Below the pieces are notes generated by a model. The model saw only the letters and a program-made list of their open reading frames with translations, made no database searches and was not told the DNA's origin. A stretch of 64,000 nt of DNA from a virus. The stretch is taken from positions 32,001 to 96,000 of the IMG/VR virus record IMGVR_UViG_3300044713_000194; one strand, 5' to 3'. Made by a program: the position numbers and the translations under genes. This document shows positions 2,913 through 56,823 of this stretch, in pieces; position 1 is the first letter of the stretch, and each line of letters opens with the position of its first letter.

Positions 2913-2958
2913 GGTAATATTTCTCGTTTCTCGTCGTAGTCCGTTTTCCTGTCAGGGA

Positions 2959-3456
2959 TTACAGGTACGAAGCAACTCCCAACCAGGGATTCTGGGTTGT
3001 GGGCGACTGCGTGCAGACGCCGATTGCTGCGGTGTATGCGCCCGTGCCGGTGGCGGCGGTCGCGGTGATCAGACCCTTCTTCGAGCCGCCTCCGGCATAA
3101 ACCGGAAGGCCGACCGTGAAGGTCGCTGTGGCGTCGTAGGCCTGGCTGTCCACGTAGAACTGGGGCAGACCGCGAAGGATGGGGGCCTTACCTGAACCCG
3201 AAGGTCCGATGGAGCCCGCAAATTCGCCGGGGCCGTTGATGAGGAAGCCGAACGGGACCTGGCCCGCAGAGGCGTCACATGGGCCAATCACCTGGCCACG
3301 GCCTGCGGTTGCGGACGTGAAGAGCGCCATAACAGCGCCACCCAAGTAACCCGCATTCGTAAGCGTGATCTGGTCAGTGCCCGGATTCCCGGTCAGCGCA
3401 ACATCGGGAGCGGTGGAACCGTCCTGCTGACCGTAGTACTTCTGGCGAAGAGACAT
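2959..3456 (-). CDS. head decoration / capsid cement protein
   Basis: 165 aa Gly/Ala/Thr-rich protein directly upstream of capsid gene. Confidence 0.65.
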   Translation of the reverse strand: MSLRQKYYGQQDGSTAPDVALTGNPGTDQITLTNAGYLGGAVMALFTSATAGRGQVIGPCDASAGQVPFGFLINGPGEFAGSIGPSGSGKAPILRGLPQFYVDSQAYDATATFTVGLPVYAGGGSKKGLITATAATGTGAYTAAIGVCTQSPTTQNPWLGVASYL

Positions 3457-41234: not shown

Positions 41235-41873
41235 TTAAACTCCACGCCGCGTCAGTAACCAAGACCGCTTCGACACTTTCACTCCGACAGGTTCGTTATC
41301 CGCACAACACGCGGGCTTGAAAACCGGGTGGCCGTGGTACTTACACCACTCCGTACGCCCCTCGGAGTCCGGTACGTCCAATTGCTGCTGTCCGTACTCG
41401 CAACGCTCACACGAGAACCCGAGCGGATTGTCCGTCGATCCGGCGCTGAGGCGCTCGTCTTTCCATCGTCCGCTGGGACAGCGCCTGCCTTCGGGGTCGC
41501 CTGTGTTGGGCTGCTCCCAAAAACCGCAGCTAAAATTGTGCGGCTTATTGATTACCTTGGGATCGCGTAGGAGGCATTCATGGTTAAGAATGACGAACAT
41601 GTTACATGAGGGAGAACTTCCGTTCTTCCGCCCGCCACAAAGGTAGGCTCCCGTCTCGTCGTACGTGTTGGGGAGGCCGCACCGAGCATCCGCGTAGTTG
41701 GATGTCCGGACTCCACGCATGCGGAGCTTTGCAAACATGACCTCCTGGTCTTTGGTAAGCGCTCCCTTAGGCTTTGCGAAGAAACCATCCGCATCAAGCG
41801 GAGCGTCGAGGATGGGCCTGCCCTCGACCTGAGTTTGATCAGGCATAATCCGAGACTCCGTTGGACTCAGCAA
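41235..41873 (-). CDS. Cys-rich hypothetical protein
   Basis: 212 aa with about 11 Cys. Confidence 0.65.
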   Translation of the reverse strand: MLSPTESRIMPDQTQVEGRPILDAPLDADGFFAKPKGALTKDQEVMFAKLRMRGVRTSNYADARCGLPNTYDETGAYLCGGRKNGSSPSCNMFVILNHECLLRDPKVINKPHNFSCGFWEQPNTGDPEGRRCPSGRWKDERLSAGSTDNPLGFSCERCEYGQQQLDVPDSEGRTEWCKYHGHPVFKPACCADNEPVGVKVSKRSWLLTRRGV

Positions 41874-41924
41874 GAGTGCGAAAGCCTATTTGCACGCACT
41901 CCCTACATAGGCCTGAAAAGTTCA

Positions 41925-42715
41925 ACGGCGCATCGCCGCCCTAACCACCGGCGACATCTACGCGCGAGAGTCAGATCGCTATCACCATCGACCTGCGCCC
42001 GGGCTCCGGAACGGGTACGTCTGATTCAGGCCGGGCTCTTTGCCAATTAGAAGACCTCACCGCCGCGTGCAATCTACCTGCTGTGGGCAAGCCGCATCTG
42101 CGGTAATTGAGGGAGGGATTCGAACCCTCATTCCCCGGCATCTCAATGTTTGCCCCCTGCGGCCACCCCTCGCGCAGGGTTACAGCCGTATTTGGTCAGG
42201 AGGTCTTTAGCGCGGATCATGGGGCGCTTCAACGGACGAAGTCCTCGACCATCCCTCACGGCTCGACCGGGTATCTAATCCGGCCTACCCCTTTACGTTG
42301 CGCCTTACCGCCGTGGCCGCATCGCGCTGCTCCACGGTTCTCTTATGGGGCCGGTAGCCCGTTTCCGCTCTAATGCACCTGCGTGCGGCTGGGAGTCGAA
42401 CCCAGCCAAGCTGCCGTTGCCCAGCCTGGTTGATGACGATGCGCGGGTCGGGTCGGATTCGAACCGACGATCGGCGGTGGTGCCCACCGCTGCTTTAGTC
42501 CGCCTAAGCTACCGACCGCGCATCTTTCCGCCCGGTCCCATCGACCACGCGACTACCGTCTCTTGGCGTTTCGGACCCCACCCCCGGGGTCCAGACGGTG
42601 CCTGCTCGCTCGGAACCTTACCGGGCGGAAACCTAAATGGGGTCTTTTATCCCTTACGGGTGTCGCTCAGAGCGCCTGCCGAAGCATAAAACTCCGCCAC
42701 AACATTTTCCCCATA
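41925..42715 (-). ncRNA. large (~800 nt) structured ncRNA candidate with an embedded tRNA-like domain (GOLLD/ROOL-like size)
   Basis: No credible ORF; three T-loop hairpins; long-range helices; GGATTAGATACCC hairpin. Confidence 0.6.
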
Positions 42716-42718
42716 CCT

Positions 42719-42795
42719 TGGTGTGCAGTCTCGGGCTCGAACCGAGGGCCTCCTCTTTGTAAGAGAGGCGCTCTAACCAACTGAGCTAACCACAC
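42719..42795 (-). tRNA. tRNA-Val(TAC)
   Basis: CCTCT-CTTACAA-AGAGG. Confidence 0.92.
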
Positions 42796-42803
42796 ACATC
42801 GCG

Positions 42804-42908
42804 TTGGGTGACGAACCTCACCAGTTCCAGCTTCGACGGGATCGAACCGCCTCCGTCCCTCGCGGGACTCTCGCCTGATGAGTACGACTGCCGCCGCTCA
42901 TCACCCAA
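42804..42908 (-). ncRNA. ~105-nt structured RNA with T-loop
   Basis: Ends pair (TTGGGTGA/TCACCCAA); internal GGTTCGATCC. Confidence 0.45.
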
Positions 42909-42946
42909 ATTCACACGGCCAAGATAACTACCATGGCCGTGTTAGT

Positions 42947-43105
42947 TCACCTCAACTTCGGACAGACCTCGTGGTAGTGGTCCTTCGACCCACAGTAGCT
43001 GCACTTACGCCTCGCCAGGTTGCCCTGCCCGTTCCAGGTCTTCGGACAGTGGTCCGTGTCGTGGCAATGACTGCCGCAGTAGGAACACCAAAGTCGCTTG
43101 GTCAT
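42947..43105 (-). CDS. 52-aa double CCHC zinc-knuckle protein (not in ORF track)
   Basis: MTKRLWCSYCGSHCHDTDHCPK...CSYCGSKDHYHEVCPKLR; ATGA overlap with upstream stop. Confidence 0.8.
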   Translation of the reverse strand: MTKRLWCSYCGSHCHDTDHCPKTWNGQGNLARRKCSYCGSKDHYHEVCPKLR

Positions 43106-46680: not shown

Positions 46681-46757
46681 TGGAGGGCGCGGCAGGACTC
46701 GAACCCGCCTGATCCACCTACGGTTTCTCGTTTAGAAAACGAGACCGATACACGCCC
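46681..46757 (-). ncRNA. atypical D-armless tRNA-like RNA (loop TT-TCT-AA)
   Basis: Acceptor stem, T arm and CCA present; D arm absent; long 3' variable region. Confidence 0.6.
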
Positions 46758-47934: not shown

Positions 47935-48350
47935 TGATTGCTTCGACGAGCAGGGCTGGCAACCTGCATCTGCGGCTTCTGGATAGGTGGGCCGCTGACT
48001 TCCGTTAGGGGGTTGACACCGTGCCCCCATTCCGCTCCGCCGTTTCCGGAGTTAATCGATCATCGATCTTCGCGCACCCTTCAGATTATCCCCACTCTTG
48101 CAGGAACCAAGCCTGTCGGCCTGGCGGGATCGGCACCACGGTTACCCGCTGCGCTTATATGCCGAACTTTCCGATCGGGTGTGTTGCTACACCAAAGAAC
48201 TCTGACCGGCGAATCGTCGTTTGTTCCTCTTATCCGGAGGACTTCACTAAATCTGTAAATTCGCCGGGTGCGGTATCGCCTTGCGGCGTCCGCGCGGTTC
48301 ACTCTTTAAAGGAAATGGCTACTTTTAGGCCAACCTCCCCGGTCGAAATT
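47935..48350 (-). ncRNA. structured ncRNA with a 23S rRNA GTPase-centre (H43/H44)-like domain
   Basis: GGAGGTTGGCCTAAAAGTAGCCATTTCCTTTAAAGAGT...TTCTTTGGTGTAGCAACAC; no credible ORF. Confidence 0.6.
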
Positions 48351-54164: not shown

Positions 54165-54375
54165 CCTCGACATTCGCGGCGGGATTCGAACCCGCGTTTC
54201 CGGGCTTGATGGCGCTCTACCAGCCTGAGCCACTCGCCGCTTGGCACTACCGGTCAAGCCGGGATCTCCATAAGGCGAGGCGGGATTCGAACCCGCGACC
54301 TCCATCCTACTTTTGTCTAACCGGCGTCCTGGGCTTGAACGATTGGGGGGAAGGCGTTCACCCGCAAGTCCAGTG
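54165..54375 (-). ncRNA. permuted/nested double tRNA-mimic RNA (YrlA-like topology)
   Basis: T arm precedes D arm; CTCGCC/GGCGAG and GATGG/CCATC pair; second T arm follows. Confidence 0.6.
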
Positions 54376-56004: not shown

Positions 56005-56517
56005 TCAGTAATAGAGAAACTGCCTCCACGCCGGATCGCGGTGACCGATCTTCCGCATCAGATGGCGGCTCGTGTGGATTGTCGCCGGTCTAGGACGGTT
56101 CAAAAGGACCATTCCCGCCTCTTCCGGCGTCCGGTCGGCCTTCTTCCCGTTACACGACTTGCATGCCGTCACCAGGTTCTCCCAGGTGTCCGGGCCGCCC
56201 TGCGCCCGAGGCGTGACATGGTCCAATGTCAAGTCGCGCACATGGAAGTGTTCTCCGCAATACTGACACTGGTAGTCATCCCGAAGGAAGATGTTCCGAG
56301 CCGAAGGCCGCGTCCTGATGTGCGGGACCTTGCGGAACTCAATCAGCCGGACAACGCTGGGCAGCTTGATGCCCCTGTGAATTTCCTGATCGTGCTCTAC
56401 CTCGGCCAATGCAACGGCCTTGCAAATCAACTTAATCGCGTCGCGGGCCGCCGCGAAACGCAGGGGTTCGTACGAAGCGTTCAACACCAGCACCGGTCTG
56501 TCCATCACTGCGCCCAT
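56005..56517 (-). CDS. HNH endonuclease (McrA-like)
   Basis: VLVLNASYEP...RDDYQCQYCG...TLDHV.P...WENLVTACKSCN; start placed downstream of tRNA-Thr. Confidence 0.9.
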   Translation of the reverse strand: MGAVMDRPVLVLNASYEPLRFAAARDAIKLICKAVALAEVEHDQEIHRGIKLPSVVRLIEFRKVPHIRTRPSARNIFLRDDYQCQYCGEHFHVRDLTLDHVTPRAQGGPDTWENLVTACKSCNGKKADRTPEEAGMVLLNRPRPATIHTSRHLMRKIGHRDPAWRQFLYY

Positions 56518-56541
56518 ACAATTACCCCCGAAACCTTGTTG

Positions 56542-56618
56542 TGGAGCCGGTGAGGGCAATCGAAACCCTGACCTGCGGTTTACGAAACCGCCGCTCTGGC
56601 CACCTGAGCTACACCGGC
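56542..56618 (-). tRNA. tRNA-Thr(CGT)
   Basis: GCGGT-TTCGTAA-ACCGC. Confidence 0.88.
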
Positions 56619-56823
56619 CCGACTCAAACTCTGAACTTCCATCCGCACACAATCGAGGCAAGTCCTAGCCTTTGAGATCCCGTGCAGGAAAATTTCTCTA
56701 TACGTACCACCCTGAGAAAGACGTTCGTAGACGCTCAACACATCTCCGTCCAGGTTGATCTGTGTCATACAACACTCCCTTGATAGGAATACCGTTTCGC
56801 TATAGCGATTCGGAATATTAAAG

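Follow-up and report, generated by a model that had tools for sequence, protein, structure and literature searches.

What does a stretch of 845 nucleotides (nt) encode when it lies among the tRNA genes of a large phage and shows no recognizable gene? The stretch (42718-41874, minus strand, the same strand as its neighbouring tRNAs) is part of a window of 64,000 nt, bases 32001-96000 of a 107.6-kilobase (kb) IMG/VR virus record that is estimated to be ~35% complete. The window contains 38 true tRNA genes and one tRNA-like call (ARAGORN), an RtcB RNA ligase gene and a tail sheath gene. Judging from its sequence, it comes from a jumbo soil phage related to Tunturiibacter phage Tunturi_5 (Acidobacteriota), and the RtcB proteins of the two are 72.7% identical. 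The cultured Tunturi_5, a jumbo myovirus that infects Acidobacteriota and comes from tundra soil in Finland, has a genome of 308.7 kb that encodes 43 tRNAs, a CCA-adding enzyme and RtcB (PMC11924767). An earlier note on the window had proposed that the stretch is one ornate RNA of ~800 nt. We read it as non-coding sequence, specific to this lineage, that fills a variable slot with a row of independent RNA modules; these may be cut from the tRNA transcript and act as look-alikes. We give this reading, mechanism included, an even chance of being right. The novel part is a portable hairpin that presents the 790 loop of 16S rRNA.

The stretch is real non-coding DNA. Its G+C content (GC) was flat over the codon positions in all frames (GC1=GC2=GC3 ~0.61-0.63), whereas the comparison genes (n=10 sampled) had a GC2 of ~0.42-0.54 and a GC3 of ~0.59-0.81, mostly 0.66-0.75. 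It is the lack of codon-position periodicity that marks the stretch as non-coding, and it agrees with the earlier description of the DNA as free of open reading frames (ORFs). The longest same-strand ORFs encode 56-60 amino acids (aa). Their starts lie within RNA helices, and they resemble reverse-read tRNA sequence.

The stretch had also been called helix-rich, which is true of its 5' third (42718-42435) and not of the rest. For the full 845 nt, the fold z score relative to shuffled sequence was -3.4 (minus strand) and -1.3 (plus strand). The global score comes from three local modules in 42718-42435. Module A (42718-42637) had a z score of -2.24, module B (42632-42526) of -4.65 and module C (42527-42435) of -5.06. 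Five sub-windows over the other 560 nt (42434-41874) had z scores between -0.6 and +1.1. Because significant folding was found only in these three self-closed units, we read the stretch as modular and not as a single fold, and the ~800-nt ornate RNA was not borne out. The modules (82, 107 and 88-93 nt) adjoin, and each is shut by its own terminal helix with a probability of at least 0.9. The high-probability elements of the 3' 560 nt are all local: T arm 2, a 4-base-pair (bp) hairpin, the 790 hairpin, the minihelix T arm and the terminal hairpin.

Module A was equalled by 3/200 shuffles, and its helix probability was 0.89-0.96. Module B is closed by a perfect helix of 11-12 bp (UUUCCGCCCGGU/ACCGGGCGGAAA) and ends in an 8-bp hairpin tip (GGACCCCG/UGGGGUCC). 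Its inverted repeat is 12 nt long and 100% complementary (42525-42536 / 42620-42631). It matched no Rfam family; the best candidate was Scr2736 at E 3.9. The paired segments named in the earlier note are present on the minus strand, as this 12-bp perfect repeat and as the 9-bp helix around the cloverleaf of module C.

Module C is tRNA shaped. Its closing pairs, GATGCGCGG at 42438-42446 with CCGCGCATC at 42517-42525, enclose the cloverleaf. It contains an acceptor-type stem of 9+4 bp with one bulged C, a tRNA-Sec-like D stem of 6 bp and 31 intact pairs (perfect or wobble). The T arm is canonical (5 bp, G53-C61, UUCRANY loop; GUCGG-UUCGAAU-CCGAC, 42452-42468), the variable region is 5 nt, and no CCA follows. 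The "anticodon loop" GGGCACC (G33, C37) pairs shut to give a 7-bp stem with a GCA triloop. Because of G33, C37 and the triloop, module C is predicted to be unable to decode. ARAGORN and folding both recovered the tRNA-like domain with closed loop GG-GCA-CC and no CCA that the earlier note had described. An assignment to tRNA (RF00005) was rejected: the model, whose threshold is 29 bits, does not list module C, and the loop is not an open 7-nt loop with U33 and purine 37. The best-scoring model of the clan, tRNA-Sec, reached 22.7 bits where 47 are required, and its alignment skipped the anticodon arm. In 190 kb of phage arrays, a covariance model built from the sequence of module C alone retrieved ordinary tRNAs only (at most 43 bits) and no sibling.

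Two smaller pieces also resemble parts of a tRNA. T arm 2 (GGCUGGG-UUCGACU-CCCAGCC, 42387-42407; T arm proper 42389-42405) has no acceptor or anticodon arm. Two hairpins flank it, a local one of 8 bp and the hairpin GCAC-GCAG-GUGC, and the surrounding 145 nt had a z score of -0.26. The minihelix joins a 6-bp acceptor-like stem (AUUGAG/CUCAAU) to a T arm (GAGGG-UUCGAAU-CCCUC, 42113-42129) and ends in UACC. It has no D or anticodon arm, its complementary 5' strand is correctly placed, and its T arm agrees with the T arm of the island tRNA-His at 19/20 positions. An acceptor stem stacked on a T arm is, classically, the smallest shape that serves RNase P, RNase Z and the CCA-adding enzyme as a substrate. 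With module C, these pieces supply the three T-loop hairpins noticed before, and all three T arms are perfect. A CCA 3' end is encoded in 38/38 true tRNAs of the island and in 0/3 tRNA-like pieces (module C, T arm 2 and minihelix), so the pieces are not ordinary tRNAs.

Similar pieces were found elsewhere in the island. Four further perfect orphan T arms (42835, 46692, 54179 and 54280) are all on the tRNA strand, and Tunturi_5 contains three orphan T arms. A stem-closed, tRNA-like element of 107 nt (42803-42909, minus strand, fold z -3.6) lies between a small ORF and tRNA-Val. It contains a closing stem of 10+8 bp, a GUCCC-GCGA-GGGAC hairpin and an orphan T arm (GGCGG-UUCGAUC-CCGUC), with no CCA and no Rfam family. 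A tRNA-like element at 46685-46757 (minus strand) matched the tRNA-Sec model at 25.9 bits, below the cut-off. It contains the perfect orphan T arm at 46692-46708 and had no ARAGORN call. At 54209-54304 (minus strand), YrlA (Y RNA-like) was matched with 40.9 bits (E 5e-6), short of its gathering score of 69. The orphan T arms at 54179 and 54280 are identical (GCGGG-TTCGAAT-CCCGC) and lie ~1.6-1.7 kb from rtcB. The orphan T arms, the 42803-42909 element, the YrlA-like match and the orphan T arms of Tunturi_5 together suggest that non-decoding tRNA look-alikes are a regular feature of these islands.

The 790-loop hairpin contains the 17-mer CCGGATTAGATACCCGG at 42283-42267 (minus strand), in which a 13-mer equals E. 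coli 16S 785-797; the earlier note had seen this helix 24 sequence correctly. The 16S-identical part consists of the 9-nt loop AUUAGAUAC and two closing G-C pairs, presented at the hairpin tip as in helix 24. By our estimate, a 13-mer shared with 16S is near chance level in a 64-kb window (~3 expected), so the significance of the match rests on its presentation in a hairpin and on its recurrence elsewhere. The rest of helix 24 (internal loop and outer stem) is not copied, and the small-subunit rRNA model had no match at E<=10 in the record. An extended local alignment to 16S 785-849 scored 29 (z ~2), whereas shuffles averaged 23.6 and reached 35. The third pair of the hairpin is C-G and not the bacterial A-U; C-G is the pair of archaeal 16S. 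The 790-loop motif was not found in Tunturi_5.

We searched sequence collections for the hairpin by exact-pattern matching. The 17-mer had seven matches in IMG/VR. Two of the contigs (L002 and L006) share 24/25 bases with the window by BLAST, 22 of them unbroken (GGCCGGATTAGATACCCGGTCG). In both (L002 3455-3487; L006 5147-5179, minus strand) the motif is the tip of a 13-14-bp intergenic hairpin just after the stop codon of a gene, and the contigs are tRNA-free. The L002 hairpin is followed by a U-rich tract, as in an intrinsic terminator. Four other matches (L003, L005, L007 and L008) lie within open frames and were treated as chance.

The 15-mer CGGATTAGATACCCG had 49 viral matches, ~34 of them distinct after near-identical flanks were removed, versus 14 (7 distinct) for the reversed control. 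Markov models of orders 1-3, trained on fetched viral DNA, predicted a ratio of 15-mer to control of 0.9-1.5 only. Five distinct matches (L004, L025, L038, L056 and L074) all share the strand of a nearby tRNA, at a distance of 14-520 nt. The locus contains 7 to 19 tRNAs in four of these five and two in L004. No such tRNA association was found among the 14 control loci.

A second pattern required a T loop 95-125 nt upstream of the 13-mer. It retrieved L025, in which the hairpin sits on the stem GCGG/CCGC between tRNA-Glu and tRNA-Asn; L029, with the hairpin between tRNA-Met and tRNA-Pro; and L033, with the hairpin on the stem GGGAUGG/CCUUCCC after tRNA-Arg in a six-tRNA array. It also retrieved a group of five contigs (L027, L028 and L030-L032) with a non-tRNA T arm and the hairpin 120 nt later. 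A long terminator-like stem with a U run encloses the hairpin in 4/5 of these, L028, L030 and L031 among them; L027 and L032 differ further downstream. The same scan of a 596-gigabase bacterial genome collection gave one match, which was coding and had no hairpin, about the chance expectation. A T loop placed 10-40 nt upstream of the hairpin had no viral match. A short BLAST of the hairpin against cultured phages gave only a chance coding match in Acinetobacter phage Presley.

In L056 the 790 hairpin is part of a phage transfer-messenger RNA (tmRNA; 58.4 bits), as a 44-nt insertion at the tip of the PK3 element. This tmRNA (2942-3374, minus strand; hairpin 3107-3121) belongs to a locus with 19 tRNAs, and its apparent tag frame ends in ...ANDSVLV. 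L038 also contains a phage tmRNA (929-1344, minus strand; 108.9 bits) in an array of 17 tRNAs. Its 790-loop hairpin (175-189) is separate, on a 10-bp stem 14 nt upstream of tRNA-Gln.

The stem of the hairpin covaries. In an alignment of 15 sequences, 77.8% of cells were paired; shuffles gave 61%, none of 500 reaching the observed value, and sliding the partner gave 33-50%. The statistic is inflated by four rows selected for forming stems. The fourth pair from the loop is C-G, G-C, U-A or A-U in 13/15 rows. In the nine array-associated rows alone, the fourth position is paired in 7/9, with four pair types. Because it recurs on differing, covarying stems in tRNA arrays and once in a tmRNA, the hairpin behaves as a portable module that large phages have put into different RNA contexts. 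It is the only element of the stretch that recurs in tRNA islands of other phages. A literature search found no paper on 790-loop or rRNA mimicry by phages.

No family or homologue was found for the unit as a whole. The likeness to GOLLD (RF01998) and ROOL (RF03087) that had been suggested found no support in covariance-model scans: the window had no match at the gathering score, and none emerged when the limit was relaxed to E<=10 for 41700-43000 and to E<=5 for 35500-59500. OLE, HEARO, raiA, RNase P, group I and II introns and T-box had no Rfam match in the stretch. At E<=10 in 41700-43000, Rfam gave weak tRNA-type matches, of tRNA-Sec type on module C (22.7 bits) and of a truncated tRNA on the minihelix (20.7 bits). 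A tmRNA (RF00023) was considered for the stretch, since the hairpin of L056 sits within one, and was rejected. There was no model match and no CCA, and the only hits in the record were tRNAs at <=29 bits; Tunturi_5 had no tmRNA match either. A similarity to 23S rRNA within the stretch was an 11-mer match at chance level.

The 845 nt had no BLAST match among 50,697 GenBank phage records and none in the 309-kb Tunturi_5 genome except via tRNA-Val. Against the 107-kb record, the stretch matched only itself. The loci of homologues of the flanking 203-aa gene (L009-L018, whole records too) contained no similarity to the stretch and no conserved upstream RNA. The whole island, compared by BLAST with all fetched phage tRNA arrays, gave tRNA-to-tRNA matches only. 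The earlier note had held that a lack of covarying homologues would speak against its RNA. For the whole unit none was found; for the 790 hairpin the stem covaries. By its sequence, then, the 845-nt unit appears to be lineage-specific and a one-off.

The slot itself is shared. The tRNA order common to the window and Tunturi_5 is Arg(ACG), Arg(CCG), small ORF(s), Val(UAC), the slot, Ile(GAU) and Gly(UCC). In Tunturi_5, tRNA-Val is followed by a 258-nt spacer with a YrlA-like element and then by a 286-aa ORF unrelated to the 203-aa protein. The YrlA-like element is a permuted tRNA look-alike (T arm first, then D arm; 29.7 bits, E 0.0095) and is unannotated. Since the contents differ, the slot is variable, and each lineage has put RNA pieces of tRNA origin and an accessory gene of its own there. 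The features of the stretch and its borders are listed in the table.

Table. Features of the 845-nt stretch, its borders and the syntenic Tunturi_5 slot.
Feature	Coordinates	Strand	Remarks
tRNA-Val(UAC), CCA encoded	42719..42795	-	ARAGORN; Rfam 66.6 bits; its 3' end is the upstream border of the stretch
Module A, stem-closed three-way element	42637..42718	-	Directly after tRNA-Val; cUUCGg and GUAA tetraloops
Module B, 107-nt irregular hairpin	42526..42632	-	Fold z -4.65; 0/200 shuffles equal it
Module C, tRNA-shaped RNA, predicted non-decoding	42438..42525	-	ARAGORN tRNA-Cys(GCA) at 42443-42518; fold z -5.06
Orphan T arm 2 region	42375..42431	-	Repeat family D1; perfect orphan T arm on tRNA strand; helix probability 1.00
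790-loop hairpin GGCCGG-AUUAGAUAC-CCGGUC	42265..42285	-	Exact match to E. coli 16S 785-797; helix probability 0.99
Acceptor/T-arm minihelix (43 nt)	42105..42147	-	Rfam tRNA 20.7 bits, 33 model positions deleted
Weakly structured 3' tail	41874..42104	-	Fold z +1.13 and -0.60; no codon periodicity
7-bp terminal hairpin	41874-41901	-	Probability 0.94; just upstream of the ribosome-binding site of the 203-aa gene
203-aa cysteine-rich protein gene	41235..41846	-	Downstream border of the stretch
Tunturi_5 YrlA-like element	L089 30167-30276 (record 253901-254010)		Syntenic slot after tRNA-Val

We propose the following mechanism for the chain. Hairpin elements A and B, the tRNA-shaped module C, the isolated T arm, the 790 hairpin and the acceptor/T-arm minihelix fill the slot between tRNA-Val(UAC) and tRNA-Ile(GAU), and the stretch would be transcribed with the tRNAs on the minus strand. 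The CCA-less tRNA-like pieces may be recognized by RNase P and RNase Z. Cutting would yield small stable RNAs and free the mRNA of the downstream 203-aa gene. The released pieces may mimic tRNA and the 30S platform and bind the usual protein ligands of both. Such a role, alongside replacement tRNAs and RtcB, suits an island that keeps translation running in an attacked cell.

Several observations weigh against the proposal of a chain with processing and look-alikes. Modules A, B and C have no homologue that we could find, so their structures are predicted from thermodynamics. The 13-bp acceptor-type stem of module C would make it an atypical RNase P substrate. Most of the 49 15-mer matches are in long open frames and are probably due to chance or codon-driven. 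Because of this, the array-associated set is small, with five viral instances and three metagenome families that are tied to a T loop by the search pattern. The selection of four alignment rows counts here as well.

The slot may also be a recombination hot spot that has collected evolutionary debris. The tRNA-like pieces would then be functionless leftovers of partial tRNA duplications, e.g., around insertions of mobile nuclease or accessory genes, and the 790 hairpin would be a passenger. The unit is absent from the Tunturi_5 slot, which holds other tRNA-like fragments and another ORF, and the 560-nt 3' part folds no better than shuffles. The 19/20 identity of the minihelix T arm to the tRNA-His T arm suggests a partial duplication. 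An HNH endonuclease gene is present in the island, and the flanking 203-aa gene looks mobile because it is found in unrelated phages. Decaying sequence would not be expected to keep the 31 intact pairs of module C and the perfect 12-bp helix of module B (z ~-5), or to place the complementary 5' strand of the minihelix where it belongs, which argues against mere decay. The orphan T arms are all 5/5 paired and on the tRNA strand, and the 790 hairpin has covarying stems in unrelated arrays, both of which count against debris. We consider debris rather unlikely.

Two further explanations treat the stretch as one functional RNA. A single GOLLD/ROOL-like RNA of ~800 nt, with its T loops and hairpin loops in long-range tertiary contacts, would account for the z score of the full minus strand (-3.4), but the three local modules explain that score. 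The lone predicted long-range helix (10 bp, 42428-42419 with 42036-42027, probability 0.98, span 400 nt) favours it too, but among ~3.6e5 position pairs in GC-rich sequence we estimate that chance alone provides several. GOLLD and ROOL are likewise found in phages near tRNAs (PMC12286853), but there was no match to them or to OLE, HEARO or raiA even at E<=10. With no homologue, there is no covariation for any long-range pair, and we consider this fold improbable. We have as little confidence in a long structured 5' leader that controls the downstream 203-aa gene. In ten other phage loci with a homologue of the gene, the sequence upstream of it is not similar to the stretch, and in one of them it is a protein gene; no riboswitch, T-box or leader family was matched. 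The stretch does reach the ribosome-binding site of the gene, its last hairpin ends 27 nt before the start codon, and no promoter-like or terminator-like site lies between; but the part that adjoins the gene is the least structured.

Beyond the chain of modules, we tentatively suggest a wider role for the 790 hairpin, although we think it unlikely. Large phages would place the portable hairpin, whose loop is universally conserved in 16S rRNA, in their tRNA islands, and in one case within a phage tmRNA, as an off-ribosome mimic of the 30S platform. It may titrate IF3, KsgA, uS11 or a 50S bridge partner, or soak up a host defence nuclease. Here it would stand beside a mimic of the 23S GTPase centre (48261-48343), replacement tRNAs and RtcB in one translation-protection island. 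The large-subunit rRNA model matched 48261-48343 (minus strand; positions 1091-1152, 24.5 bits, E 6e-4), between tRNA-Asp and the next gene. The local alignment of this element to E. coli 23S 1055-1088, the uL11-binding GTPase-associated centre, was 7 standard deviations above shuffles. It is ~6 kb from the stretch and on the same strand. From these statistics, the island holds at least one other rRNA-site copy with independent support.

The 203-aa protein contains 11 conserved cysteines. It has 38 homologues at 48-61% identity, all unannotated and scattered among unrelated phages, and three of them are encoded 400-500 nt downstream of tRNA genes. The protein had no Pfam or PHROG match, and none of the 38 homologues has a Pfam domain. 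Its AlphaFold model had a pLDDT of 41 and was unusable, and the ESM Atlas gave no usable lead. The HNH endonuclease gene inside the island is located at 56005-56661 (minus strand; Pfam HNH, E 6e-18) and is a possible driver of the mosaic structure of the island. A 52-aa ORF (42947-43105, minus strand) directly upstream of the 42803-42909 element and tRNA-Val contains two CX2CX4HX4C zinc-knuckle motifs. Its GC3 of 0.81 fits a coding sequence, and it has no Pfam match. Close relatives of a 336-aa neighbour gene were not found in viral contigs.

Several known systems resemble parts of this island. The phage T4 tRNA cluster contains species 1 and 2, structured non-tRNA RNAs in a tRNA operon that are released by the tRNA-processing machinery. 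They are single units of ~120-140 nt, whereas here several modules are chained over 845 nt. Copying the protein-binding site of an rRNA into another RNA is an established principle in the leaders of ribosomal-protein operons. The 790 hairpin differs from those leaders in its location, phage tRNA islands and one tmRNA, and only the tip of helix 24 is copied. GOLLD and ROOL are also large and non-coding, and in phages or prophages they often neighbour tRNA genes (PMC12286853). The stretch differs from them in having no covariance-model match, no conserved family and no evidence of one global fold.

YrlA and other Y RNA-like RNAs (RF02553) of bacteria and phages are non-decoding and have a long closing stem that carries an imitation of the tRNA elbow, with its T and D arms; their genes lie near rtcB (PMC4201824). 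The YrlA-like match at 54209-54304 and the one in the syntenic slot of Tunturi_5 are similar to them. The stretch is different: there was no YrlA match at E<=10 in 41700-43000, and module C has the topology of a normal tRNA, whereas YrlA is permuted. A Ro60/TROVE gene had no match in the 107-kb record, which is only ~35% of the genome. Allo-tRNAs and selC*-type tRNA-Cys have been reported from Acidobacteria and phage tRNA clusters, and some are possibly regulatory non-coding RNAs (PMC5389517). They share with module C the long acceptor stem with a bulged base and the tRNA-Sec-like 6-bp D stem. They are charged and their 7-nt anticodon loop is open, and in allo-tRNAs the variable arm is long as well. 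In module C, by contrast, the triloop is closed, the variable region is only 5 nt and CCA is missing.

The island itself holds more than tRNAs. The usual view of phage tRNA islands is that they support codon usage or replace tRNAs cut by host anticodon nucleases. Beyond its tRNAs, this one contains short pieces that copy functional rRNA sites, and tRNA look-alikes that apparently do not decode. The 845-nt unit is a one-off and by itself tells little. The 790 hairpin recurs on differing stems beside tRNAs in unrelated large phages. If it binds a ligand of the ribosomal platform, it would offer a simple example of rRNA imitation by a virus, and one that can be tested. If that is true, it would give a handle on what these crowded islands do beyond tRNA supply.

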